27,584 nucleotides of DNA from a virus. Taxonomy: Duplodnaviria > Heunggongvirae > Uroviricota > Caudoviricetes. Below are positions 6,234-27,317 of the stretch, piece by piece. How positions within the stretch are numbered: the stretch's first letter is position 1; every line of letters begins with the position of its first letter. The position numbers were made by a program, and so were the translations under genes. A model generated the notes under the pieces. The model was given only the letters and a program-made list of their open reading frames with translations. It was not told where the DNA came from and ran no database searches. The DNA lies in the IMG/VR virus record IMGVR_UViG_640753024_000006, positions 1 through 27,584 of that record. One strand, given 5' to 3'.

Positions 6234-6386
6234 TCAGTCAGAGTTTCTTGCTAACCAGCGATGCGCGCCAGCTTCGGTTTTAAACGTTTTACTTTTGGTA
6301 TACGTCATCGCGGTGAACGTGCCGTCCTGGTTGGGAAACACGCCGCACACCAGAGATTCGTTGTTGCCAAGATCGATAGTATCCAT
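6234..6386 (-). CDS. Small DUF1391-like protein (YdaF/YdfA-like, 50 aa)
   Basis: MDTIDLGNNESLV...TAMTYTKSKTFKTE...RWL..N matches my memory of Rac YdaF / Qin YdfA small proteins; GAGG RBS upstream of ATG 6386. Confidence 0.55.
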   Translation of the reverse strand: MDTIDLGNNESLVCGVFPNQDGTFTAMTYTKSKTFKTEAGAHRWLARNSD

Positions 6387-13143: not shown

Positions 13144-14199
13144 GTGCGGGTATTACTTCGACCTGTTCCGGTACCGGAACTTGGGCTGGTGGTGCTAAAA
13201 CCGGGCCGTGAATCCATGCAGGTATTTCATAACCCTCGAGTTCTGGTGGAGCCGGAACCGAAAAGCATGCGCGGTCTGCCGTCCGGAGTCGTTCCTGCTG
13301 TTCGCCAGCCGCTGGCGGAGGATAAATCATTACTGCCATTTTTCAGCGATGAGCGGGTGATTCGTGCTGCTGGTGGTGCTGGGGCACTGTCTGACTGGCT
13401 GTTGCGTCATGTCAAATCCTGCCAGTGGCCACACGGCGATTATCATCACAGCGAAACCGTTATTCACCGATATGGTACCGGCGCAATGGTGTTGTGCTGG
13501 CACTGCGACAACCAGCTGCGTGACCAGACCTCCGAATCACTCGGGCAACTTGCTCACCAAAATTTGTCAGCATGGATGATTGACGTCATACGCCATGTAA
13601 TGAATGGCGCGCAGGAGCGTGAATTATCGCTGGCTGAATTATCCTGGTGGGCAACCATAAATAACGTAGCGGACGCACTACCGGAGACGGTGTTACGTCG
13701 TTCGCTGGGATTACGCGCGGAAAAAATTCGCTCAGTATACCGCGAGAGCGACATCGTGCCGGGAGAGCAGACCGCCACCAGCATGCTGAAGCAGCGCACA
13801 AAAAATATTGCGCTACTGCCTCACGCCCACCAGCAAAACCCGCCACAGGAAAAGACGGTGGTAAGCATTGCCGTTGATCCGGAGTCACCGGCTCAGTATC
13901 TCCAGCGCCAGAAACCACGACGGGAAGAGATGCCTGTATACACGCGTTGGGTAAAAACGCAGAAATGCATGACGTGTGGTAATCAGGCAGATGATCCGCA
14001 TCACATCATTGGTCATGGACTGGGAGGGATGGGAACAAAGGCTGATGATTTGTTTGTTATTCCGCTGTGCCGTAAATGCCATAGCGAACTACACGCCGGG
14101 GTAAAAGATTTTGAAGAAAAACACGGCAGCCAGCTGTTGTTGCTGATTCGTTTTTTAATGCACGCGAGAAATTCGGGTGTCCTGAAGTGGAAAGCATGA
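13144..14199 (+). CDS. DUF968-like protein with C-terminal HNH-like Cys/His cluster (YdfU-like)
   Basis: 351 aa; C-terminal CMTCGN...PHHIIGHG...PLCRKCHSELH; GGAGG RBS with GTG start. Confidence 0.6.
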   Translation: MRVLLRPVPVPELGLVVLKPGRESMQVFHNPRVLVEPEPKSMRGLPSGVVPAVRQPLAEDKSLLPFFSDERVIRAAGGAGALSDWLLRHVKSCQWPHGDYHHSETVIHRYGTGAMVLCWHCDNQLRDQTSESLGQLAHQNLSAWMIDVIRHVMNGAQERELSLAELSWWATINNVADALPETVLRRSLGLRAEKIRSVYRESDIVPGEQTATSMLKQRTKNIALLPHAHQQNPPQEKTVVSIAVDPESPAQYLQRQKPRREEMPVYTRWVKTQKCMTCGNQADDPHHIIGHGLGGMGTKADDLFVIPLCRKCHSELHAGVKDFEEKHGSQLLLLIRFLMHARNSGVLKWKA

Positions 14200-14565
14200 A
14201 TGACTGAACGCATAGAATTTGTTTTGCCTTACCCGCCAACGGTGAACACTTACTGGCGACGTCGTGGCAGCACATATTTTGTATCAAAAGCCGGTGAGCG
14301 TTATCGCCGTGATGTGGCGCTTATTGTTCGCCAGCAGCGACTGAAATTAAACCTGTCCGGACGGCTGGTGATAAAGATTATTGCAGAGCCACCGGATAAA
14401 CGTCGTCGTGACCTGGACAATATCCTGAAAGCACCACTGGATGCGCTGACGCATGCCGGACTTCTCATAGACGACGAGCAGTTTGATGAAATCAATATTG
14501 TGCGCGGTCAGCTCGTTCCTGGTGGGCGGCTGGGGATAAAAATCACAGAACTGGAGTGCGCATGA
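14200..14565 (+). CDS. rusA: Holliday junction resolvase RusA
   Basis: 121 aa; VLPYPPTVNTYW... and D..DN..K..LDAL residues characteristic of RusA; nin-region position before Q. Confidence 0.85.
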   Translation: MTERIEFVLPYPPTVNTYWRRRGSTYFVSKAGERYRRDVALIVRQQRLKLNLSGRLVIKIIAEPPDKRRRDLDNILKAPLDALTHAGLLIDDEQFDEINIVRGQLVPGGRLGIKITELECA

Positions 14566-15251
14566 ATAACCAGTATTTACAGTTTGTGCGTGAGCAGCTC
14601 ATTATCGCCACCGCTGATTTGAGTGGGGCAACAAAAGGTCAGCTTGAAGCCTGGCAAGAGAATGCCATGTTCGATACAGGGCGTTACAGGCGTAAAAAAA
14701 TCCGGTACCGCGATGAAGTGACTGGAAAAATGATAACGCGGGATAATCCACCAATCCCGGGAAAGCAATCGCTGGCGAAAGGTTCATCAATTGCCCTGGT
14801 CAGTCCGGTTGAGTTTTCGACATCATCATGGCGACGCGCCGTTCTGTCTCTTGAAGAGCATCAGAAGGCGTGGGTGCTGTGGGTATACAGTGAAAATCCG
14901 AGTTGGGATTATCAGGTGGTCATTGCGAAATGGGCGTGGGATAAGTTTCAGGTGCATTTTGGCACCAGAAAAATTACAGGGAAAACGCTTGAGCGTCTGA
15001 AGAAATTAATCTGGCTGGCGGCGCAGGATGTCAGGGGGAGGATTACTGGGCGTGACGTCTACCAGCGACAGGAACTTGCCAGACTGTGTGGAGTTAAGCC
15101 TGACAACTGGAGCCATAATTATGCGAACTACTGGCGTGAGATGTGCGACATTTTTAAGAAACTCGATACAGAATCCTTGATTTGCACCGTGAAAATGAGA
15201 TCGCAACAAAAAGCGACCTTTTCACGACGAGATATTGCAAAAGTCAATTAA
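14562..15251 (+). CDS. Putative late-gene antiterminator Q (Qin QuuQ-like)
   Basis: Position after rusA and before a promoter plus short-leader terminator; ATGA overlap with the rusA stop; family assignment by position and memory only. Confidence 0.5.
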   Translation: MNNQYLQFVREQLIIATADLSGATKGQLEAWQENAMFDTGRYRRKKIRYRDEVTGKMITRDNPPIPGKQSLAKGSSIALVSPVEFSTSSWRRAVLSLEEHQKAWVLWVYSENPSWDYQVVIAKWAWDKFQVHFGTRKITGKTLERLKKLIWLAAQDVRGRITGRDVYQRQELARLCGVKPDNWSHNYANYWREMCDIFKKLDTESLICTVKMRSQQKATFSRRDIAKVN

Positions 15252-15297
15252 ATCGCATACATTTTATGTAAATGTGATATTTTGCCGTATAGTGTGT
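15235..15297 (+). promoter_or_regulatory. pR'-like late promoter and leader (putative qut region)
   Basis: TTGCAA at 15235-15240, 17-nt spacer, TACATT -10-like hexamer; also a TATAGT hexamer at 15288-15293; strong terminator immediately downstream. Confidence 0.4.
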
Positions 15298-15322
15298 AAA
15301 CCCGCTTAAATGCGGGTTTTTT
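15298..15322 (+). terminator. tR'-like rho-independent terminator
   Basis: aacccgc-ttaaat-gcgggtt stem-loop followed by TTTTTT. Confidence 0.8.
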
Positions 15323-15395
15323 GCTTAACTCTGTGGACCTTTTTATCTGTAGTTGTAAGATATGGATATTCTTACAATTTAGGTCGGTGAGCTTA

Positions 15396-16160
15396 ATGGA
15401 AGAACAGCACGGTAATTACTTTATAAAACGAATTCAGTTGATTGGAAGGGGTGCATTTGGCTTTGTTGAACACGTTAAGGTTTACAACCTCAACAAGGGT
15501 GAATGTGGGGATTATGCTAGAAAGGTTTTAGCCCCCGAAAAACCAGAGCTTTTGGCGCAAATAGAGCAGTTTAGAAGGCGTTTTAAAAGGGAGGTCGTGT
15601 ATCAATCACATTGCGTACATAGCAATATTGTTCCTATTTATTTGTGCGATTTGTTTGCCGAGAATCCATGGTTCATTATGGATAAAGCAGAATGTGATCT
15701 TGAGCACGAAATAACGAACAACCTTCTTACAACAGATCAAAAAATTTCAATAGTGAAAATGGTATTAGATGGTGTAGCTCACATCCATGCGAAAGGCTAT
15801 TTACACAGAGATATAAAACCATTTAATGTCTTGCGATTTAGCGACGGAACATACAAGGTGTCTGATTTTGGTCTGGTAAAAGATACAAATCCCGAAGGGG
15901 ATACCACTAAATTGACCGAGATCGGTACCCGTATGGGAAGTACAAGATATATGGCTCCCGAGATTTTATATAATGCCGAGTATTCAGTTAAGACTGATGT
16001 TTATGCGGTGGGGCGGTTAATTGAGGACTTAAATTTAGATGATAAAAAAATAAAGCCTATCATAGCGAAGTGTACCAGGATGGATAAAGATGATAGATAT
16101 CAGACAATAGATGATGTGGCGTTTGATTTTGTGCATTCTTTTTTAAGGAGTGAGTCATGA
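15396..16160 (+). CDS. Eukaryotic-like (Hanks-type) Ser/Thr protein kinase, minimal kinase domain (255 aa)
   Basis: Subdomain motifs GRGAFGFV (Gly loop), ARK (Lys), HRDIKPFN (catalytic loop), DFG, MAPE (APE), DVYAVG; AT-rich; ATGA overlap with the downstream gene. Confidence 0.85.
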   Translation: MEEQHGNYFIKRIQLIGRGAFGFVEHVKVYNLNKGECGDYARKVLAPEKPELLAQIEQFRRRFKREVVYQSHCVHSNIVPIYLCDLFAENPWFIMDKAECDLEHEITNNLLTTDQKISIVKMVLDGVAHIHAKGYLHRDIKPFNVLRFSDGTYKVSDFGLVKDTNPEGDTTKLTEIGTRMGSTRYMAPEILYNAEYSVKTDVYAVGRLIEDLNLDDKKIKPIIAKCTRMDKDDRYQTIDDVAFDFVHSFLRSES

Positions 16161-16900
16161 TTCAGCTGATAGCGACTTCATCATTCTCGTATCCAAAAGA
16201 ACCAGGTAGGGTCAACGAAGATTCATTGCTTCCTCCCAAAATTGTAGGGGATGGCATCTTATTTGCCGTAGCTGATGGTGTAGGTTCATACACTGGTGCC
16301 AGTCAGGCTTCATCAATGGCAATTGCTGAACTTTCAGCATTGACAAGCTTATCTTTTGACACAGTTCCGGATGTATTTGATGAAGTTAAGCGAAAGGTTA
16401 TGTCGTTAGCTGATGTTAATGATGAGTTCGATAAAGCTGCTACTACACTTACGTTTTGTTATGTTTGTGATAGCGGAATTATTATTGGTCATATTGGTGA
16501 TTGTCGTTTGTATTGCATTGGAGAGAAGAAAGCATACCAATTGACGAAGGACGATACCAGGCATCAGATGCTAATTGATCAGAATATTTTTAAACCCAGA
16601 GATTTGAAGGATAAACCGGGCAAAAATATCTTAACGACGGCGATAGCCTCAAATGTTGATATGGAATACGACTGTGATTTTATCACATGGAAAGATTTAC
16701 CTAGTATTAACGGGGTATATCATCTGTGTATCATGTCTGATGGGGTTCATAACGTTTGGGAAAAACGCCCCAGATTTACATCAAATACGATGAGTAATAG
16801 TCAGAAGTTTTCTAATGGCATTTTGCGTCGTATAGAGAGAGCCGGACCTGATGATGACTTTTCTTTAGTAAGTATAATGGTGCGTGTGACGTCAGATTAG
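16157..16900 (+). CDS. PP2C-family (PPM) Ser/Thr protein phosphatase
   Basis: Motifs RVNEDS, FAVADGVGS (DGxG), HIGDCRLY (GDSR-like) and MSDGV; 247 aa; coupled to the kinase gene. Confidence 0.8.
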   Translation: MIQLIATSSFSYPKEPGRVNEDSLLPPKIVGDGILFAVADGVGSYTGASQASSMAIAELSALTSLSFDTVPDVFDEVKRKVMSLADVNDEFDKAATTLTFCYVCDSGIIIGHIGDCRLYCIGEKKAYQLTKDDTRHQMLIDQNIFKPRDLKDKPGKNILTTAIASNVDMEYDCDFITWKDLPSINGVYHLCIMSDGVHNVWEKRPRFTSNTMSNSQKFSNGILRRIERAGPDDDFSLVSIMVRVTSD

Positions 16901-16973
16901 TTGTATAAACTCAGTAGGGAATGCTAATTTCACATACAACATAGTTAAAGAAAACTTAATTTTAATGTAAAAA

Positions 16974-16996
16974 GGCTGCCCTCAGGCGGTCTTTTT
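16974..16996 (+). terminator. Probable intrinsic terminator after the kinase-phosphatase pair
   Basis: ggctgcc-ctca-ggcggtc hairpin (with G-U pairs) followed by TTTTT. Confidence 0.45.
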
Positions 16997-17119
16997 ATGC
17001 TCGAAAATTGATGCAGTACGTTAAACGCGCTGGTGGTTGCGAATACCGGTCTTTCAGCTTGCTGGCTTTTTAGACAAGAGTTATTGGTATGTCACGTTAA
17101 CCAGAAAAGGGAAAAAGAC

Positions 17120-17317
17120 ATGCTAAAACAGCAGGATATGACCGAAACCGCCAGAGTGGTGTTTAATGAATTAAGCGTCACCGAACCGGCGACCGTCGGG
17201 GAAATTGCGCAGAATACTTACCTTTCACGCGAACGCTGCCAGTTAATCCTGACCCAGCTTGTTATGGCGGGTCTGGCAGATTATCAGTTCGGTTGTTACA
17301 GACGCCTTCTGCAGTGA
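17120..17317 (+). CDS. Small winged-helix DNA-binding protein (65 aa), possible methylase-associated regulator
   Basis: ATG 17120 with purine-rich RBS; MarR/wHTH-like TVGEIAQNTYLSRERCQLILTQL; immediately upstream of the DNA MTase gene. Confidence 0.45.
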   Translation: MLKQQDMTETARVVFNELSVTEPATVGEIAQNTYLSRERCQLILTQLVMAGLADYQFGCYRRLLQ

Positions 17318-17467
17318 AGGCTTTTTAATTTGTGGTAATGGGCGGCTGGTGGGTGTTAGCGGCACCTGCCAGCCATCTGCTCATGCGTTGGGGTCACAAG
17401 CAAACCTCAGGCCCATCTGCTTTGCGCAAAAGCAGTATGAGCCTATCAGAGAAGTGCTTATTGATCT

Positions 17468-18517
17468 ATGACTAATACTGTAAAAATATCCAGTTGTGAG
17501 TTAATCAACGCTGATTGCCTGAAATTTATCCAGACCTTACCGGAAAACTCTGTCGATCTGATAGTCACAGACCCGCCATACTTTAAAGTGAAGCCCGAGG
17601 GCTGGGATAACCAGTGGGAGGGCGACGATGATTACCTGAAATGGCTGGACCAGTGTCTGGCGCAGTTCTGGCGGGTACTGAAGCCTGCCGGAAGTCTTTA
17701 CCTGTTCTGTGGTCATCGCCTGGCATCTGACACCGAAATCATGATGCGTGAGCGCTTTAATGTGCTGAACCACATTATCTGGGCGAAGCCGTCCGGACGC
17801 TGGAACGGGTGCAATAAGGAAAGTCTGCGGGCGTATTTTCCGGCAACAGAGCGCATTCTGTTTGCAGAACATTATCAGGGACCGTATCGCCCGAAAGATG
17901 ATGGCTATGTGGCACAGGGGCGCGAGCTAAAACAGCACGTCATGGCCCCGCTGATTTCTTACTTTCGTGATGCGCGTAAATCACTGGGAATAACGTCAAA
18001 ACAGATAGCGGAAGCCACCGGAAAGAAAAACATGGCTTCGCACTGGTTTGGTACCAGTCAGTGGCAGTTACCGAACGAGGGTGATTACAACAAATTGCAG
18101 GCGTTGTTTGCGCGTGTTGCGGCAGAAAAACATCAGCGCGGGGAACTGGAAAAACCACACCACCAGCTGGTCAGCACATACAGTGAGCTGAACCGGCAGT
18201 ATACGGAATTGCTGAGTGAATATAAAAATTTGCGGCGGTATTTCGGTGTGACGGCGCAGGTTCCGTACACCGATGTCTGGACGCATAAACCGGTGCAGTA
18301 CTATCCAGGGAAACATCCGTGCGAAAAACCGGCAGAAATGCTGCAGCAGATAATCAACGCGAGCAGTCGTCCGGGAGACCTGGTTGCAGATTTTTTTATG
18401 GGTTCAGGTTCAACGGTAAAAGCGGCGATGGCACTGGGGCGTTGTGCGATTGGTGTTGAGCTGGAGACAGGACGTTTTGAACAGACAGTCAGGGAAGTTC
18501 AGGATTTAATCGTTTGA
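17468..18517 (+). CDS. DNA methyltransferase, N6-adenine (or N4-cytosine) beta-class
   Basis: DPPY motif (VTDPPYF) near the N-terminus and FxGxG SAM motif (FFMGSGST) near the C-terminus; 349 aa; same position as the methylase in Stx-type phages. Confidence 0.85.
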   Translation: MTNTVKISSCELINADCLKFIQTLPENSVDLIVTDPPYFKVKPEGWDNQWEGDDDYLKWLDQCLAQFWRVLKPAGSLYLFCGHRLASDTEIMMRERFNVLNHIIWAKPSGRWNGCNKESLRAYFPATERILFAEHYQGPYRPKDDGYVAQGRELKQHVMAPLISYFRDARKSLGITSKQIAEATGKKNMASHWFGTSQWQLPNEGDYNKLQALFARVAAEKHQRGELEKPHHQLVSTYSELNRQYTELLSEYKNLRRYFGVTAQVPYTDVWTHKPVQYYPGKHPCEKPAEMLQQIINASSRPGDLVADFFMGSGSTVKAAMALGRCAIGVELETGRFEQTVREVQDLIV

Positions 18518-18566
18518 AACGGATGAGATTGCAGAATTAATTACGCACCATTATTATTCTGCTCCC

Positions 18567-18642
18567 GGCCCTTTAGCTCAGTGGTGAGAGCGAGCGACTC
18601 ATAATCGCCAGGTCGCTGGTTCAAATCCAGCAAGGGCCACCA
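18567..18642 (+). tRNA. tRNA with anticodon CAU (Ile2/lysidine type, ileX/ileZ-like, or Met)
   Basis: Cloverleaf folds by hand: 7-bp acceptor GGCCCTT/AAGGGCC, D-arm GCTC..GAGC, anticodon loop CTCATAA, T-loop GGTTCAAATCC, CCA end. Confidence 0.8.
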
Positions 18643-18643
18643 A

Positions 18644-18720
18644 CCGTCACCAGTTCATCAGGAAAGAGCGTCAACCCTTTAAGTTGAGTGTGCGAGGTTC
18701 GAGTCCCCGGTGGCGGTCCA
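18644..18720 (+). tRNA. Aberrant tRNA-like element (anticodon-loop CCTTTAA, apparent anticodon UUU with C at position 33); possibly a degenerate tRNA
   Basis: Acceptor CCGTCAC/GTGGCGG (one G-U), T-loop GGTTCGAGTCC and CCA end, but non-canonical C33 and a mismatched T-stem. Confidence 0.35.
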
Positions 18721-18722
18721 GT

Positions 18723-18798
<76 letters not shown>

Positions 18799-18801
18799 TA
18801 T

Positions 18802-18876
<75 letters not shown>

Positions 18877-19153
18877 GCATTTGCAACAAGCCTTATTGTA
18901 TTGCGGCACTGGTGTATTTTTTATTACGTGGGAGCAGGTTGTTTTGAAAAAGCATTCTGTTCTCTGGCTATAATTTGAGGCCAGGTGTAGCCTCAGTGCT
19001 GATTTTTTTACGACAGCAGAATGGTGCATTATCGGTGGAGATTTTGTATTTCCTGGCAGGGTCGGTGATGCATCATTCCGATGTTGTAAGCATCGCTCAG
19101 AATAACGTTGAGATTAATCGCGTACTAAGCAAAACCTGGAAATACATCCTTAA

Positions 19154-19178
19154 CCGCCGCACCAGGCGGTTTTTTTTA
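19154..19178 (+). terminator. Rho-independent terminator
   Basis: ccgcc-gcacca-ggcgg hairpin followed by eight T. Confidence 0.7.
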
Positions 19179-19303
19179 TTCATTTTTTTTTCATGGCTCG
19201 CTACGGCGGGCCTTTTTCATATCCTCGCCACACCCGGCGCATATCACATCAAATAACGCCGCGCAAAAGGCATCTGCGGGTGCCTTTGACGGGGTGTTTT
19301 TAC

Positions 19304-19327
19304 GGGCCGCTGGCGGCCCTTTTTTAT
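19304..19327 (+). terminator. Rho-independent terminator just upstream of the lysis genes
   Basis: gggccgc-tg-gcggccc hairpin followed by TTTTTT. Confidence 0.75.
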
Positions 19328-19344
19328 TTACAGGAGAAAAACGT

Positions 19345-19737
19345 ATGTCTGAACCCTTATCCGGTTCCGGCACGGCTGCGGCGCTCGGTGGGGCGACGGT
19401 GTACGGGCTGTTTACCGGAACGGATTTCGGGATTGTGTTTGGTGCGTTCGCCGGGGCGTTATTTGTGGCAACGATGCCGCAGGCGCTTTCAGTCTGGCGT
19501 GTGGTGGCGCATTTTCTGGTGTCGTTTATTGTCGGCGTGCTGGGAGCGCGTGTGCTGTCAGCCTGGATTGCATCAAAAACAGGGTATGACGGTACATCGG
19601 CAGATGCGCTGTGTGCGGTGCTGGTATCGGTGGTGTCGGTGAAGGTTCTGTCGTTCATCCACCAGCAGGATATTGCATCGCTGGTGTCCGGTGTGTTCTC
19701 CCGCCTGCGGGGCGGAGGTGGCGGCAATGTTAAGTAA
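19345..19737 (+). CDS. Putative holin (multi-pass membrane protein, 130 aa)
   Basis: AGGAG RBS before ATG 19345; several hydrophobic helices; first gene of a cluster ending in an endolysin. Confidence 0.5.
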   Translation: MSEPLSGSGTAAALGGATVYGLFTGTDFGIVFGAFAGALFVATMPQALSVWRVVAHFLVSFIVGVLGARVLSAWIASKTGYDGTSADALCAVLVSVVSVKVLSFIHQQDIASLVSGVFSRLRGGGGGNVK

Positions 19738-20002
19738 CCTTCCCGGATTGCTGAATGTGGCGTTATGCACGGTTATCGTGCTGACGCTCTTTTTTTATCG
19801 TCGTCGCGATTCCAGACATAAGCCGCTGATGTCATGGCTGGCCTGGCTGCTGATGCTGCTGTATGCCTTTGCACCACTCAGTTATCTGTGCGGTCGCCCG
19901 TTAGCGGCGAACTGGCTGGCGGTGGGGCTTAATCTGCTGTTCTGCGTGCTGGTGATACGTGCACGCGGGAACGTTTCAAAAATCCTTTCATTACGGAGGT
20001 GA
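19727..20002 (+). CDS. Second small membrane protein of the lysis cassette (holin/antiholin-like, 91 aa)
   Basis: GGAGG RBS; start overlaps the previous stop; 2-3 hydrophobic helices; stop abuts the endolysin start. Confidence 0.45.
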   Translation: MLSNLPGLLNVALCTVIVLTLFFYRRRDSRHKPLMSWLAWLLMLLYAFAPLSYLCGRPLAANWLAVGLNLLFCVLVIRARGNVSKILSLRR

Positions 20003-20004
20003 GT

Positions 20005-20382
20005 ATGCCCGGTAAATTCAGATTCAGTCGTCGAAGTGAGAAAAATCTGGAGGGCGTCAAACCACAGCTGGTTGCTGTTGTTCGCCGTGCGCTGGAGCTG
20101 ACGGAGGTTGACTTCGGTATTACGGAAGGCCTGCGCAGTAAGTATCGCCAGAAGCAGCTGGTCGCGGAAGGGAAAAGCCAGACCATGAACAGCCGCCACC
20201 TGACCGGTGATGCGGTGGATGTTGTGGCCTACATTGGTAGCCAGGTGTCATGGGACTGGCCTCTGTACGAGAAAATCGCGCAGGCATTTAAGCAGGCTGC
20301 CGCAGAGCTGGGAACTGCCATCGAATGGGGCGGGGACTGGAAAACACTGAAAGACGGGCCTCACTTTCAGTTGAAGCGCTAA
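20005..20382 (+). CDS. Endolysin, peptidase M15 family (L-alanyl-D-glutamate peptidase, T5 Lys-like)
   Basis: Zinc-ligand pattern H..D (SRHLTGDAVD) and C-terminal H (GPHFQL); overall resemblance to T5 endolysin as I recall it; GGAGG RBS. Confidence 0.8.
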   Translation: MPGKFRFSRRSEKNLEGVKPQLVAVVRRALELTEVDFGITEGLRSKYRQKQLVAEGKSQTMNSRHLTGDAVDVVAYIGSQVSWDWPLYEKIAQAFKQAAAELGTAIEWGGDWKTLKDGPHFQLKR

Positions 20383-20396
20383 TAACCAGGTGGTTT

Positions 20397-20579
20397 ATGA
20401 GCCGAAAACACTGGACACACAGAATGCCGCGAACGGCGGCGAAATGGGCACTGGTAGCGATACTGGTGCCTTTTTTCCTGGTGGGATGCGTTAGCCTGGA
20501 TAAGGTGCGCCAGCTTTTCGATACGGCCTCGCAGGTCTGCGAAATTGTCGAAAGTGCCAGGCAGTGTATGCAGAACTGA
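20397..20579 (+). CDS. Small lipoprotein (possible o-spanin/Rz1-like or Cor-like exclusion lipoprotein)
   Basis: AGGTGG RBS; signal peptide ending in lipobox LVGC; 60 aa; directly after the endolysin. Confidence 0.4.
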   Translation: MSRKHWTHRMPRTAAKWALVAILVPFFLVGCVSLDKVRQLFDTASQVCEIVESARQCMQN

Positions 20580-20666
20580 TCGCCTGTAAGAGCAGAATAT
20601 TGTTGAATCTAAATTTACTTTGAACAGTGGCCCGGATGGAAAGGGCATCTAAATAGGAGCAGAAAA

Positions 20667-20876
20667 ATGTTAACTGTAAAAGTCATGTCTCAAAATGGTG
20701 GGGAAGAGCTCCATTGCGGGCGTAGCATTGGCTATCATCCAGAGCAGCGGAGTATTGCCGTATCGGGAAAGGATGGGAAAGTCATTCTGAAAGATGGAGA
20801 TATTGCTTATGTAATGAACCAAAACGCTCAAATAATATCTGTTTATCGGCCCAATAATAGTCAGAAAAACATTTGA
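20667..20876 (+). CDS. Hypothetical small protein (69 aa), AT-rich moron
   Basis: AGGAG RBS before ATG 20667; no recognised motif. Confidence 0.45.
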   Translation: MLTVKVMSQNGGEELHCGRSIGYHPEQRSIAVSGKDGKVILKDGDIAYVMNQNAQIISVYRPNNSQKNI

Positions 20877-20999
20877 ATTTCGCAAGTCCAAAGTTCAGTG
20901 GTGATCGTTATCAACTAATTGAAATAACAAGCTTATGTTTGTGTAATTGGTGATATAGCATGTTAATGCTGAATATCAGCGTCAACATGGAGTTATACA

Positions 21000-21215
21000 A
21001 TGGTTTTTAAACACTATTACGTGAACAAAAATGCTCAGAGCAATGGCGATCATGAGGTGCATGCTGAGGAATGTTCATATCTTCCTGCTGTAGCTAACCG
21101 CGATTACCTTGGTTACTATAGTGATTGTTCTTCGGCGGTAACAGAGGCAAAGGCCAAAGGATATTCCCGGGTGAATGGTTGCTATTGGTGTGCCAATAAG
21201 TGCCACACGTCTTAA
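21000..21215 (+). CDS. Hypothetical small Cys-rich protein (71 aa)
   Basis: Six Cys including a C-Y-W-C pair; followed by a clean terminator at 21238-21257. Confidence 0.45.
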   Translation: MVFKHYYVNKNAQSNGDHEVHAEECSYLPAVANRDYLGYYSDCSSAVTEAKAKGYSRVNGCYWCANKCHTS

Positions 21216-21724: not shown

Positions 21725-22279
21725 ATGAAGGTTAATAAAAAGAAACTTGCCGAAATTTTCAACGTGGATCCGCGAACGATTGAACGCTGGCAGTCTCAGG
21801 GACTCCCTTGCGTCTCCGGAGGTGGTAAGGGCGTTGAATCTGTATTTGATACCTCCATGGCAATTCAGTGGTATGCACAGAGGGAGGCTGATATCGAAAA
21901 TGAAAAACTCCGTAAAGAGGTTGAGGATTACAGAGCTGCCAGTGAGGCAGATCTCCAGCCTGGGACTATTGAGTACGAACGCCATCGACTTACGCGTGCG
22001 CAGGCCGACGCACAGGAGCTGAAGAATGCCAGAGACTCCGCAGAAGTGGTGGAAACCGCATTCTGTACTTTCGTGCTGTCACGGATCGCAGGTGAAATTG
22101 CCAGTATTCTTGACGGGATCCCTCTCTCGGTACAGCGGCGTTTTCCGGAACTGGAAAACCGACATGTTGATTTCCTGAAACGGGATATCATCAAAGCCAT
22201 GAACAAAGCAGCCGCGCTGGATGAACTGATATGGCTTACAGCCGTGTTTCGACTTTCTCCGGGGATTATCTCCGCGTAA
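21725..22279 (+). CDS. nu1: Terminase small subunit Nu1 homolog, C-terminus replaced at a deletion junction
   Basis: N-terminal ~170 aa closely resemble lambda Nu1 as I recall it (conserved ...[60 protein letters not shown]...); the last residues run into lom-derived DNA. Confidence 0.85.
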
Positions 22280-22529: not shown

Positions 22530-22540
22530 GTGGGGTGAAT

Positions 22541-25500
22541 ATGGCAGTAAAGATTTCAGGTGTACTGAAAGACGGCACAGGAAAACCGGTACAGAACTGC
22601 ACAATCCAGCTGAAAGCAAAACGTAACAGCACCACGGTGGTGGTGAACACACTGGCCTCAGAAAATCCGGATGAAGCCGGGCGTTACAGCATGGACGTTG
22701 AGTACGGTCAGTACAGCGTTATTCTGTTGGTGGAAGGCTTCCCGCCGTCACATGCCGGGACCATCACCGTGTATGAAGATTCCCGACCCGGTACGCTGAA
22801 TGATTTTCTCGGTGCCATGACGGAGGATGATGCCCGTCCTGAGGCACTGCGCCGTTTTGAACTGATGGTGGAAGAGGTGGCGCGTAACGCGTCCGCGGTG
22901 GCACAGAACACGGCAGCCGCGAAGAAGTCAGCCAGCGATGCCGGCACATCAGCCCGTGAGGCGGCAACCCATGCGACTGATGCTGCAGGCTCAGCACGCG
23001 CAGCCAGCACGTCAGCCGGACAGGCCGCGTCGTCGGCTCAGTCAGCGTCTTCCAGCGCAGGAACGGCATCAACAAAGGCTACTGAAGCATCAAAAAGTGC
23101 TGCTGCTGCAGAGTCCTCAAAAAGCGCGGCAGCTACCAGTGCCAGTGCCGCGAAAACGTCAGAAACGAATGCGGCAGCGTCACAAAAATCTGCAGCCACT
23201 TCTGCATCCGCCGCGACCACAAAGGCGTCAGAAGCTGCCACCTCAGCCCGGGATGCGGCGGCCTCAAAAGAGGCAGCGAAATCATCAGAAACGAACGCAT
23301 CATCAAGCGCCAGTAGTGCAGCTTCCTCGGCAACGGCGGCAGGAAATTCCGCGAAGGCGGCAAAGACGTCCGAGACGAACGCCAGGTCTTCTGAAACGGC
23401 AGCGGGACAGAGTGCCTCAGCTGCGGCAGGCTCAAAAACAGCGGCTGCGTCGTCTGCCAGCGCCGCGTCAACAAGTGCCGGGCAGGCCTCAGCCAGTGCC
23501 ACCGCCGCCGGAAAATCGGCAGAAAGCGCCGCATCATCCGCTTCAACAGCCACAACGAAGGCTGGCGAAGCCACTGAGCAGGCCAGCGCAGCAGCGAGGT
23601 CTGCTTCTGCAGCAAAAACCTCTGAAACAAATGCAAAGACTTCAGCAGACAATGCTGCTTCCTCTAAGGCGGCAGCCGCATCGTCCGCTGGTTCAGCGGC
23701 GTCATCGGCATCATCTGCGTCTGCTTCAAAAGATGAGGCGACCAGACAAGCGTCAGCAGCGAAAGGTAGTGCCACGACAGCAACAACGAAAGCATTAGAG
23801 GCGGCAGGCAGTGCGACGGCTGCATCTCAGAGCAAAGTTGCTGCTGAATCCGCGGCAACGCGCGCCGAGACAGCGGCAAAACGGGCAGAGGATATTGCAT
23901 CCGCCGTGGCGCTTGAGGATGCGAGCACGACGAAAAAGGGGATAGTCCAGCTCAGCAGTGCGACCAACAGTACGTCTGAAACGCTGGCGGCAACGCCAAA
24001 GGCAGTAAAATCAGCCTATGACAATGCAGAGAAACGTCTGCAGAAAGACCAGAACGGCGCTGATATACCCGATAAGGGACGCTTCCTGAACAACATTAAC
24101 GCGGTCAGTAAAACAGACTTTGCTGATAAGCGTGGTATGCGTTATGTGCGGGTTAACGCTCCTGCAGGTGCAACATCTGGAAAATATTACCCTGTTGTTG
24201 TTATGCGTTCTGCTGGCTCAGTAAGCGAACTGGCATCAAGGGTCATTATCACCACGGCAACGCGAACCGCAGGCGATCCGATGAATAACTGCGAGTTTAA
24301 CGGATTTGTTATGCCTGGTGGCTGGACTGACAGGGGGCGTTATGCTTATGGAATGTTCTGGCAATATCAAAACAATGAACGAGCCATCCACTCAATAATG
24401 ATGAGTAATAAGGGCGATGATTTGCGCTCTGTGTTCTATGTTGATGGCGCTGCTTTCCCTGTTTTTGCGTTTATCGAAGATGGCCTGTCAATATCCGCAC
24501 CTGGTGCTGATCTCGTTGTTAATGATACGACCTATAAGTTTGGTGCAACAAATCCAGCGACTGAATGTATCGCGGCGGACGTTATCCTTGATTTTAAGAG
24601 TGGGCGTGGTTTTTATGAGTCCCATTCGTTAATCGTTAACGATAACTTGTCGTGCAAAAAACTTTTTGCCACAGACGAAATTGTAGCGCGTGGTGGTAAT
24701 CAGATTCGAATGATAGGTGGGGAGTATGGTGCATTATGGCGTAATGATGGCGCTAAAACTTACCTGCTGCTTACCAATCAAGGTGATGTTTATGGTGGCT
24801 GGAATACATTAAGACCGTTTGCTATTAATAACGCAACCGGCGAACTGGTTATTGGAACCAAACTGTCCGCAAGTCTGAACGGTAATGCATTAACAGCAAC
24901 AAAGCTGCAAACGCCAAGACTGGTTTCTGGTGTTGAGTTTGATGGTTCCAGAGATATTACTTTAACCGCTGCGCATGTGGCTGCTTTTGCCAGAAGGGCA
25001 ACGGATACATATGCCGATGCGGATGGTGGCGTTCCCTGGAATGCCGAATCAGGCGCTTACAATGTCACCCGCTCTGGCGACACCTATATTCTGGTTAACT
25101 TCTATACCGGAGTCGGAAGTTGCCGGACCCTGCAGATGAAGGCGCATTACAGAAATGGTGGTCTGTTCTACCGTTCCTCAAGAGATGGCTATGGTTTTGA
25201 GGAAGACTGGGCAGAAGTTTATACCTCGAAAAATCTTCCACCAGAAAGCTACCCAGTCGGCGCACCAATCCCGTGGCCATCAGATACCGTTCCGTCTGGT
25301 TATGCCCTGATGCAGGGGCAGACTTTTGACAAATCTGCTTACCCGAAACTTGCAGCCGCTTATCCGTCAGGTGTGATCCCTGATATGCGTGGCTGGACGA
25401 TTAAGGGCAAACCTGCCAGTGGTCGGGCCGTATTGTCTCAGGAACAGGACGGCATTAAATCGCACACCCACAGCGCCAGCGCATCCAGTACGGATTTGGG

Positions 25501-25954
25501 GACGAAAACCACATCGTCGTTTGATTACGGCACTAAATCCACGAATAACACCGGGGCGCATACGCACAGTCTGAGTGGCTCTACGGGGTCTGCCGGTGTT
25601 CATACTCATGGTAATGGTATTCGTTGGCCAGGAGGCGGCGGTTCTGCGTTATCATTTTATGATGGCGGTGGGTTCACTTATGTCCAGAATTCACAGTATC
25701 AAGTAAGCCCGGAGACTTCTTCCTATAGATCGTATTATCAACGTATTCAGACACAGTCAGCAGGTGCTCATACCCACTCGCTGTCTGGTACTGCAGCAAG
25801 TTCTGGCGCACATGCACATACTGTAGGTATTGGTGCGCATACGCACTCCGTTGCGATTGGTTCACATGGACACACCATCACCGTTAACGCTGCGGGTAAC
25901 GCGGAAAACACCGTCAAAAACATCGCATTTAACTATATTGTGAGGCTTGCATAA
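22541..25954 (+). CDS. stf: Side tail fibre protein Stf (long Ala/Ser-rich repeat shaft, C-terminal HxH-repeat tip)
   Basis: N-terminus [26 protein letters not shown]... matches lambda Stf as I recall it; ~350-aa Ala/Ser/Thr-rich low-complexity region with KxSETNA repeats; C-terminal GAHTHS/HxH repeats typical of fibre tips. Confidence 0.9.
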
Positions 25955-26592: not shown

Positions 26593-27249
26593 CTATTTTT
26601 TCCCTGAAGCGGAAAACATTACTACAGTACCTTGAACCTTGGTTTTAACATTCTCGAAATGCTCTGAGAGTATATGTGTTAAGCCTTCTTCGGAATCTTT
26701 TGTGTTTGAAAAGATGCCTTTCTGATTGTAAATGCGCATCAGTTTTTGACCGAAGCTATTGTGCACAACTCCATCGCCAAGAATTGTGGCTCCGTATAGA
26801 GTTCCATCGTCAGTTAAGGCCTGCGCCGCATTGCGTATTACACAGCTTTTTGTAGATATATTTCCAGGCAGGCAGTGAAGAAGGTAAAACATGGAAATGG
26901 AATCAAATTGACCATGTAACGCCGCGGGATAAGGTTCAAAAACATCATGGCTAATTTTATGTTTAATTTTTGATTCCCCAGCCCTTGTCGATGCCGCGTT
27001 CAGGCTAGCTTCGTTCAAATCCATTAAAGATATCAGACTACTCTCAGGTACGTGGGTAAGGTAAAACCCAGTTCCAACACCAATATCCAGATGGTTGTTA
27101 CCTACATGTTCCAGAAAGTGTGGAAGAAGGTGTTCCTTTGTAGGACATCCCCATGCAAGCCGATTTGATACTCCCAAAACCCACCAGTCATAAAGCTTTA
27201 GGGTAAGTGGTGTGTAAATTTTAGCCCCATCATCTGTGTTTTTTTTCAT
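26593..27249 (-). CDS. Class I SAM-dependent methyltransferase (substrate unknown), AT-rich
   Basis: Motif I HLDIGVGTGFY (hh-D-h-G-x-G-x-G); GGTGA RBS before ATG 27249; opposite strand to the fibre genes. Confidence 0.75.
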   Translation of the reverse strand: MKKNTDDGAKIYTPLTLKLYDWWVLGVSNRLAWGCPTKEHLLPHFLEHVGNNHLDIGVGTGFYLTHVPESSLISLMDLNEASLNAASTRAGESKIKHKISHDVFEPYPAALHGQFDSISMFYLLHCLPGNISTKSCVIRNAAQALTDDGTLYGATILGDGVVHNSFGQKLMRIYNQKGIFSNTKDSEEGLTHILSEHFENVKTKVQGTVVMFSASGKK

Positions 27250-27317
27250 TGATTTCACCATGTTATAGTTTTATTTGTGAATTAAATCAATTATGGCGAT
27301 GAATTACAAGGGGTTAA

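Follow-up and report, generated by a model that had tools for sequence, protein, structure and literature searches.

A probable bistable messenger RNA leader between a small winged-helix gene and an M.EcoGII-family adenine methyltransferase gene in a lambdoid prophage of Escherichia coli

In the current analysis we have studied a late-region module of a lambdoid prophage of Escherichia coli, which consists of a small open reading frame (ORF) followed by a gene for a DNA methyltransferase (MTase) of the M.EcoGII family. The module lies in a stretch of 27,584 nucleotides (nt) of viral DNA (IMG/VR record IMGVR_UViG_640753024_000006), the whole of which is referred to here as the window; its positions 14000-21000 are 100% identical in five complete genomes, NZ_CP025892 being an example. 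The 150-nt spacer between the two genes is probably a conserved bistable leader of the messenger RNA (mRNA), apparently undescribed, with a structured part of about 130 nt. We favour, with moderate confidence, a scheme in which the module is transcribed late under the control of the antiterminator Q and the bistable leader gates the translation of a toxic enzyme.

An M.EcoGII-like gene is found 3' of the small gene in 27 of the 28 species representatives encoding the small protein, and the distance from the stop codon of the small ORF to the ATG of the MTase gene is 147-154 nt in all the loci with both genes intact and correctly delimited; one locus, with a frameshifted MTase gene and a run-on small ORF, stands outside this count. 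The length is kept even in Plesiomonas, Mixta and Scandinavium, where the identity of the small protein is 41-55%. Across the Enterobacterales the spacer is more conserved than the small ORF, with many invariant columns and long invariant runs such as AATGGGCGGCTGG. No covariance model of Rfam 15 matched the region 17300-17470, either at the gathering or at permissive thresholds (E-value up to 10). Loose gapped-pattern scans of metagenomes and viruses returned mostly chance matches, and 46 true divergent loci were left after a tblastn filter. The prophage small RNAs of Tree et al. 2014 (PMC4104026) were considered as a match and rejected, as they are located elsewhere and are convergent to moron genes.

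Two alternative folds have been identified for the leader, the segments (a to f) and hairpins of which are listed in Table 1. State A, the fold obtained with RNAalifold, is a three-way junction of the helices P1, P2 and P3. P1 is formed by UGGGC of segment a (17339-43) and GCCCA of segment d (17411-15), and P3 by segments b and c (17378-85 with 17395-17402). State B is the minimum free energy (MFE) fold of the window sequence (-78.3 kcal/mol, z = -4.1). The pairings in this state are those of a (AUGGGC) with b (GCUCAU), of d (GGCCCA) with e (UGAGCC), by which the hairpin P4 is lengthened, and of c (GGUCACAAGC, 17392-401) with f (GCUUAUUGAUC, 17456-66), a segment that covers positions -12 to -2 before the AUG of the MTase. 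The segments a, b, c and d each have a partner in both states, and the two folds are mutually exclusive.

Covariation has been followed in an alignment of 57 sequences less than 95% identical, one divergent clade (MTase identity 56-75%) among them, and in a narrower set of 45 sequences, with slid helices serving as controls. Among the 57 sequences the helices specific to state A have 49 cells changed on both sides and a covariation score of 0.171 (slid controls 0.02-0.10), and for those specific to state B the figures are 41 cells and 0.185 (slid controls 0.03-0.10). Cells specific to state A are paired in 98% of the cases in the narrower set against 18-45% for the slid controls; for state B the corresponding values are 87-93% (93% in the narrower set) against 23-42%. 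Each state has evidence that is private to it, since a change of G to A at 17400, seen in 12 sequences, is compensated only in f (C to U) and leaves a C.A mismatch with b, and since the pair 17378/17402 (CG 22, UA 15, AU 7, UG 5) covaries only in P3. The pair G17410-C17443 between d and e (GC 43, AU 7, GU 7) likewise exists only in state B, and compensatory changes between c and f are of the types AU/GC/GU and GC/AU. G.U pairs are frequent, occurring for instance in 34-40 of the 57 sequences at three pairs, and are seen in the sense strand only; what is constrained is therefore the RNA made in the direction of the MTase gene.

The two states are close in energy. When each is enforced, the mean difference between the two is -1.3 kcal/mol over the 45 sequences, and neither usually departs from the MFE by more than a few kcal/mol. 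The 5' domain (17338-17416) folded alone has P1 and P3 as its MFE structure in 38 of the 57 sequences, and state A should therefore form first in the course of transcription. Two other accounts of conserved stretches have been tried and rejected. The 5' arm of P2 contains the Chi octamer GCTGGTGG (17345-17352), and Chi was considered as the cause of the conservation of this arm; variants that destroy Chi are compensated on the opposite arm, so that it is the pairing of the RNA, and not Chi, that is kept here. A stem between ATCAG (17445-49) and CTGAT (17461-65) shows uncompensated T/C variation. The window as a whole has 12 Chi sites, those at 17029-17036 and 17345-17352 among them, against 0.8 expected; 8 of the 12 are on the + strand. 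In four loci the homology of the module ends inside the leader just past P2 and is followed by unrelated AT-rich DNA, a pattern that resembles a site of repeated recombination in the leader.

The gene following the leader encodes an enzyme of a known kind. Its product matches PF01555 (N6_N4_Mtase) with 152.5 bits (cut-off 26.7) over residues 29-340 and has the beta-class order of motifs, namely D35-P-P-Y38, a central target recognition region and F310-M-G-S-G314. M.RsrI, CcrM and M.MboIIA are its relatives in the PDB. It is identical to M.EcoGII at 316 of 350 positions (90%) over the full length, both proteins having 349 residues; the reference sequence of M.EcoGII, taken from the supplement of PMC11551740, was machine-read and carries a few errors of optical character recognition. 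By its sequence the MTase is a member of the M.EcoGII family. The initial annotation had described an orphan beta-class DPPY enzyme, and this description stands: no restriction endonuclease is found in the window or in the related loci, and the only endonuclease-type domain present is a DUF968/HNH domain of the NinG region.

M.EcoGII is a characterised non-specific adenine MTase from a prophage of E. coli O104:H4 C227-11 (PMC5778455), which is unexpressed in the lysogen and deleterious once expressed (PMC5778455, PMC12707154). Absence of sequence specificity, toxicity and silence in the lysogen are established for M.EcoGII only and may hold, by relatedness, for the present allele. A discrete new methylation site, which the initial annotation had proposed to determine by expression of the MTase, is unlikely for a protein 90% identical to a non-specific enzyme. 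Murray et al. 2018 (PMC5778455) name a homologue of M.EcoGII in phage 1720a-02, and it is among the MTase matches of the current analysis. A comparison with methylases of Shiga toxin (Stx) phages had also been suggested. The module is present in 298 phage records, mostly of Stx2 phages, with phiP27 and SfV among the others. Among 5426 complete genomes of E. coli, 2185 (~40%) carry it, often in several copies and in as many as 7. The IMG/VR record IMGVR_UViG_2698536677_000006 has two complete modules 3 kb apart on the reverse strand (near 6376 and 9362), which carry different leader alleles. Residues 167-189 of the MTase (17966-18034), in the central target recognition region, show a weak match to HTH_3 (E-value 0.17, LGITSKQIAEATGKKNM), and this stretch may be a non-specific DNA-binding element of the M.EcoGII family.

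The likely function of the enzyme would be a broad methylation of progeny phage DNA, which would let it escape from many restriction systems. The enzyme would be toxic to the host, and would be kept silent in the lysogen and off until late phage growth. Two layers of control can be proposed. In the first, suggested by the anatomy of the late region, only a Q-modified, terminator-resistant polymerase would pass the terminators at 15298, 16968 and 17304 and reach the module. The second layer would be the bistable leader, the structure of which is supported by covariation. State A would form first during transcription and leave the region before the AUG free (ON), and state B would block ribosome loading through the pairing of c with f at -12 to -2 (OFF). 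The initial annotation had seen in the locus a controller-like arrangement that times methylation; the regulated timing is supported by the current analysis and the controller arrangement is not.

There is no canonical Shine-Dalgarno (SD) sequence before the AUG of the MTase, where the string GCUUAyUGAUCyAUG is conserved, and UGAUC in segment f could for this reason be the sole ribosome-binding determinant. The 3' tail of 16S ribosomal RNA (rRNA) contains GAUCA, which is complementary to UGAUC. Segment c contains GGUCAC, and literally GAUCAC in the divergent clade, and may thus be a mimic of rRNA that sequesters UGAUC. Translation of the small ORF, whose stop codon lies in the hairpin P0, may influence downstream events. 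The small protein might further act in trans and turn the switch, in the way in which Com acts on Mu mom; by this analogy a Com-like role of the small protein is a tentative suggestion. It is likewise possible, though doubtful, that the leader belongs to a new class of bistable RNA whose three-way junction is locked by a small molecule or by the small protein as a Com-like RNA binder of unrelated fold, and translation of the MTase thereby allowed.

Some considerations weigh against the proposed gating of translation. All the mechanistic steps beyond the sequence, the fold and the covariation are ones that we infer, and the nucleotides needed free for initiation are, with no canonical SD sequence, likewise a supposition. 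The covariation of state B comes from few clades and would represent few independent events, and one clade (L027, L162 and L188) and partly another (that of L170) are without the pairing of c and f near the AUG. The conserved motif at 17058-17095, if it is a dedicated promoter, could weaken a purely Q-dependent transcription. Lastly, the always palindromic centre of P4 is unaccounted for by an RNA hairpin, and would fit a DNA site with dyad symmetry or kissing between two loops.

The motif at 17058-17095 is situated 45-90 nt 3' of a terminator and about 25 nt 5' of the small ORF. A promoter scan gives it a poor sigma-70 match, and no dyad is seen in it in the alignment of 17 species. Readings as a sigma-54, sigma-E or CII-type element were tried by eye and none fits. 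It could be an activator-dependent promoter or an element of the 5' untranslated region.

The small protein is a predicted winged helix, as the initial annotation had proposed for the 65-residue ORF. Its ATG start (MLKQQDM...) is kept in all the homologues and agrees with RefSeq. The AlphaFold2 model (mean predicted local distance difference test, pLDDT, of 91) has the order alpha1-beta-alpha2-alpha3-beta-beta, with three helices and a two-strand wing and without N- or C-terminal dimerisation helices. The best fold matches are winged-helix domains of the MarR/OhrR and IclR types, with template modelling (TM) scores of 0.75-0.81 (OhrR 0.81, IclR 0.76). Further matches include winged-helix domains of O-methyltransferases and the winged helix of SelB that binds the selenocysteine insertion (SECIS) RNA, which is a precedent for the binding of an RNA hairpin by this fold. 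In Pfam the protein remains below the thresholds (TrmB 18.3 bits, cut-off 25.6; MarR_2 14.7 bits, cut-off 27); it has no NCBIfam model and nothing in PADLOC, and a sequence search of the PDB gave no meaningful match. In an exhaustive HMMER search of 1.84 billion representative proteins the family amounts to 335 clusters when grouped at 90% identity and to 61 representatives at the 50% level, confined to phages and prophages of Enterobacterales and with no informative distant relatives. Helix 3 opens with a conserved R-C-Q, and conservation is seen also in two Cys, in a pair of basic residues of the wing and in a hydrophobic stretch LILTQLV(M)AGL; the net charge from the sequence is about -1.

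Both the leader and the small ORF are present at 70 of 73 loci in a sample anchored on the MTase. An MTase-anchored search aimed at distant relatives yielded only relatives at least 90% identical, and the association of leader and MTase is thus covered down to about 56% MTase identity. About 7 viral contigs encode the leader and the MTase without any detectable small gene; in two of these the leader and the MTase gene lie directly 3' of Q and its terminator. As judged from these contigs the small protein is dispensable for the maintenance of the leader, because their leaders are unchanged.

The initial annotation had regarded the palindrome between the two genes (P4) as a possible operator of a controller protein. 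In a reading of this kind the small protein would bind the palindrome in DNA as a dimer and repress or activate transcription of the MTase, in the manner of a C protein or of MarR. The palindrome itself is present as described. Two perfectly complementary 7-bp arms enclose a loop of 5 nt, and no other such inverted repeat occurs in 17100-17500; with a chance expectation of about 0.06 per 150-nt spacer the palindrome is, taken alone, only mildly unusual. More than 100 different sequences, drawn from many genera, retain it, and in many species it extends to a perfect 16-nt palindrome, GCTTTAGCGCTAAAGC. Its centre is self-complementary in every variant (GCGC, AGCGCT, AACGTT, ACGCGT, GTGCAC, GTCGAC), homologous positions in six of the loci included, as would be expected of a dyad-symmetric DNA site and unlike a hairpin loop. 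The confident prediction of a winged helix, the adjacency of the small gene and the MTase gene in about 90% of the contexts and the conserved R-C-Q and basic wing pair also speak for DNA binding. The palindrome is however located 3' and not 5' of the small gene, about 100 nt away from it, and stays unchanged at loci from which this gene is absent. The promoter scan detected no sigma-70 promoter close to it or elsewhere in the spacer. An extended -10-like string TGTG-n-AAAT 5' of the leader was judged non-functional, as its -11 position is unconserved. The outer stem passes through the series U-A, U.G and C-G, and more than 20 different sequences tolerate U.G there. The stretches on either side of the palindrome form an RNA helix in which compensatory changes are seen, and the palindrome is itself one helix of a larger covarying RNA. 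The small protein has no HTH_3 match, its gene is preceded by no C-box and no endonuclease gene is linked to it; it is not a controller protein of a restriction-modification (R-M) system. The lack of dimerisation helices and the slightly negative charge also speak against the operator reading, which is for these reasons unlikely.

It is quite unlikely that the structures act instead in transcription or RNA processing, with P0 as a terminator subject to ribosome-coupled attenuation and the remaining leader as an element for RNA stability or RNase processing. P0 is terminator-like, and its stem (17304-17321) covaries in 5 of 6 pairs and is followed by a T-run in sequences of the E. coli type. 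It contains the stop codon of the small ORF in all the species, whichever stop is used, and P0-like hairpins occur 5' of the leader even where another gene is upstream. Against this explanation the T-run is degenerate outside E. coli (TTTCTGCTG), and the three-way covariation, in which c is coupled to b and also to f beside the AUG, is left unexplained by it.

The three-way junction could also be thought of as the aptamer of a metabolite-sensing riboswitch, for S-adenosylmethionine (SAM) or S-adenosylhomocysteine (SAH) for example, in which the small protein takes no part. The unpaired junction nucleotides (AACC, AU) are conserved, the alternative pairing would serve as an expression platform, the downstream gene uses SAM, and some phages have the leader without the small ORF. 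The lack of similarity to any Rfam riboswitch, a ligand that is not inferable from the sequence and the absence of an obvious need for metabolite sensing by a late phage gene in a dying cell make such a riboswitch decidedly improbable. A coding role of the spacer can be practically dismissed: an ORF of 47 residues (17332-17475), present in the window with a TAA that overlaps the start of the MTase (ATGACTAA) as if translationally coupled to it, meets a TAG after 7 codons in most species, is shifted in frame by 1-nt indels between close relatives and has neither a 3-nt periodicity of substitutions nor a Pfam match, and a 70-residue ORF was rejected on the same grounds of early stops and frame-shifting indels.

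Table 1. The methyltransferase module and neighbouring features in the window
Feature	Position	Strand	Basis and remarks
Antiterminator Q gene	14556..15251	+	phrog_304 Q-like, E-value 9e-103; RefSeq annotation; start of the late region
pR'-like promoter TTGCAA-17 nt-TACATT (putative), then tR'-like intrinsic terminator	15235..15327	+	Terminator by scan
Stem of the tR'-like terminator, with a T-run after it	15298-15319	+	Terminator scan
Intrinsic terminator immediately 5' of the module	16968..17003	+	Inverted repeat with 13-nt arms, T-run; also given as 16968-16997
Conserved 5' motif CTTGCTG-N12-AGAGTTATTGGTATGTCAC, also given as CTTGCTG-N10-(A/C)CAGAGTTATCTGTATGTCAC	17058..17095	+	Invariant columns, 17 species
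Small winged-helix protein, 65 residues, phrog_331 (no known function)	17120..17317	+	ORF list, RefSeq, PHROGs, AlphaFold2
P0 hairpin GCCTTC/GAAGGC around the stop codon of the small ORF (17315-17317), then TTTTTAATTT	17304..17331	+	Terminator scan; terminator-like
Leader, 5' domain: a 17338-43, P2 17344-55/17363-74, b 17378-85, c 17392-17402, d 17410-16	17338..17416	+	RNAalifold, pair counts
P4, palindrome CTGCTTT/AAAGCAG around GCGCA	17417..17435	+	Inverted repeat; conservation
Leader, 3' part: e 17437-43, f 17455-66 (GTGCTTATTGATC), ending one base before the AUG	17437..17467	+	MFE, pair counts, compensatory changes
M.EcoGII-family beta-class N6-adenine DNA MTase, 349 residues	17468..18517	+	DPPY 17570-17581, FxGxG 18395-18409
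Transfer RNA cluster	18567..18876	+	3' of the module; where Stx phages carry transfer RNAs and stx

The late region has the gene order Q, terminators, the module of small ORF, leader and MTase, transfer RNAs (tRNAs), holins, M15 endolysin and terminase Nu1, and the MTase has Q, a kinase, a PP2C phosphatase, tRNAs and holins as neighbours. The hexamers of the pR'-like promoter after Q were read by eye from the sequence, and a role as promoter is presumed for them. A terminator equivalent to that at 16968-17003 is found at the same place in all the aligned loci, and the homology to other phages starts just 3' of it. The placement of the module matches in phiP27, SfV, 1720a-02 and the Stx2 phages.

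Between the tR'-like terminator and the module the prophage carries a moron (15396-16900) of a Ser/Thr kinase and a PP2C phosphatase whose genes overlap by 4 nt. The kinase (phrog_2361) matches PD-T4-6, Stk2 and mad6 in PADLOC with E-values of 1e-40 to 1e-28, and the pair is probably a prophage anti-phage kinase with its own phosphatase. The tRNA cluster includes tRNAs with CAT (annotated as Ile2), Thr and Gly, and a degenerate Lys-like tRNA found by ARAGORN only. Stx phages have ileZ-argN-argO and then stx at this site; here the cluster is followed only by an ORF for a hypothetical protein of 86 residues and several terminators. Immediately 3' of the gene for the terminase small subunit Nu1 (21725-22279) lies a tail-fibre gene of 1139 codons (22535-25954). 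In NZ_CP025892 the identical left part runs on into terminase large subunit, portal and head genes, and the prophage of the window appears to be cryptic, with its head and tail genes lost. The - strand carries a second, unrelated methyltransferase cargo gene (26596-27261) past the gene for tail-fibre assembly; its product is a class-I SAM-dependent enzyme (Methyltransf_12/23/25).

M.EcoGII is widely used for chromatin and RNA footprinting, and the means by which phages silence it have not been described so far. In Stx phages the module is placed directly 5' of the toxin genes on the same late transcript. If the proposed scheme is true, the best-studied bacterium would gain a further, hitherto undescribed cis-regulatory RNA. 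On the more doubtful reading, in which an effector locks the three-way junction, the leader would also be the native control element of an enzyme in wide biotechnological use, and small activator and mRNA switch would be a second, independently evolved solution for toxic DNA-modification enzymes of phages. The leader could be reused as a tight expression switch.

Among the known systems, M.EcoGII and M.EcoGI (PMC5778455) are the nearest to the enzyme itself, which shares with M.EcoGII the length of 349 residues, 90% identity, the beta-class order, a prophage location and the absence of an endonuclease partner. The present allele differs from M.EcoGII by about 34 substitutions, and its activity and specificity are predicted from the sequence; the upstream small ORF and the leader are not described in the published work on M.EcoGII (PMC5778455). 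With the C proteins and C-boxes of R-M systems (C.PvuII, C.AhdI) the module shares a small protein of helix-turn-helix type next to an MTase and a nearby palindrome. Unlike these systems it has a protein outside the Xre/HTH_3 group, no endonuclease, and a palindrome that is downstream, without a promoter, and persists without the small gene. The riboswitches that sequester the ribosome-binding site, such as SAM-III (SMK box), resemble the leader, as predicted here, in having a structured 5' domain, an alternative pairing that occludes the start region and folds of nearly equal energy. The leader differs from them in that it matches no Rfam family and has no known ligand. A canonical pair of SD and anti-SD is absent too, and in its place the pair UGAUC / GGUCA(C) may mimic GAUCAC of 16S rRNA.

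The com-mom operon of phage Mu, reportedly treated by Hattman in 1999, offers the closest parallel in regulation. In com-mom, com-hin1523 and com-hia5 a small translational activator is encoded 5' of a toxic modification gene of broad specificity, structures that bind Com are situated at the 5' end of the modification gene, and in FluMu and Hia the downstream gene also is a non-specific adenine MTase (Drozdz et al. 2012, PMC3299994). The module of the current analysis similarly has a small ORF directly 5', on the same strand, of a toxic late DNA-modification gene, and a predicted mRNA structure at the 5' end of this gene may likewise act in translational control. The parts are different: Com is a zinc finger with four Cys and the small protein here is a winged helix with two conserved Cys, the leader is longer (~130 nt), contains a three-way junction and can adopt either of two complete folds by prediction, and the phage is lambdoid and Q-dependent, whereas Mu uses C and Dam/OxyR control. 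Unlike in Mu, the leader can occur without the small protein, for which RNA binding is suggested by analogy. By this comparison the leader, possibly with its winged-helix companion, appears to be an undescribed variant of the Mu mom-type combination of small ORF and mRNA switch built from unrelated parts, and the parallel would suggest convergent post-transcriptional locks on anti-restriction DNA modification.

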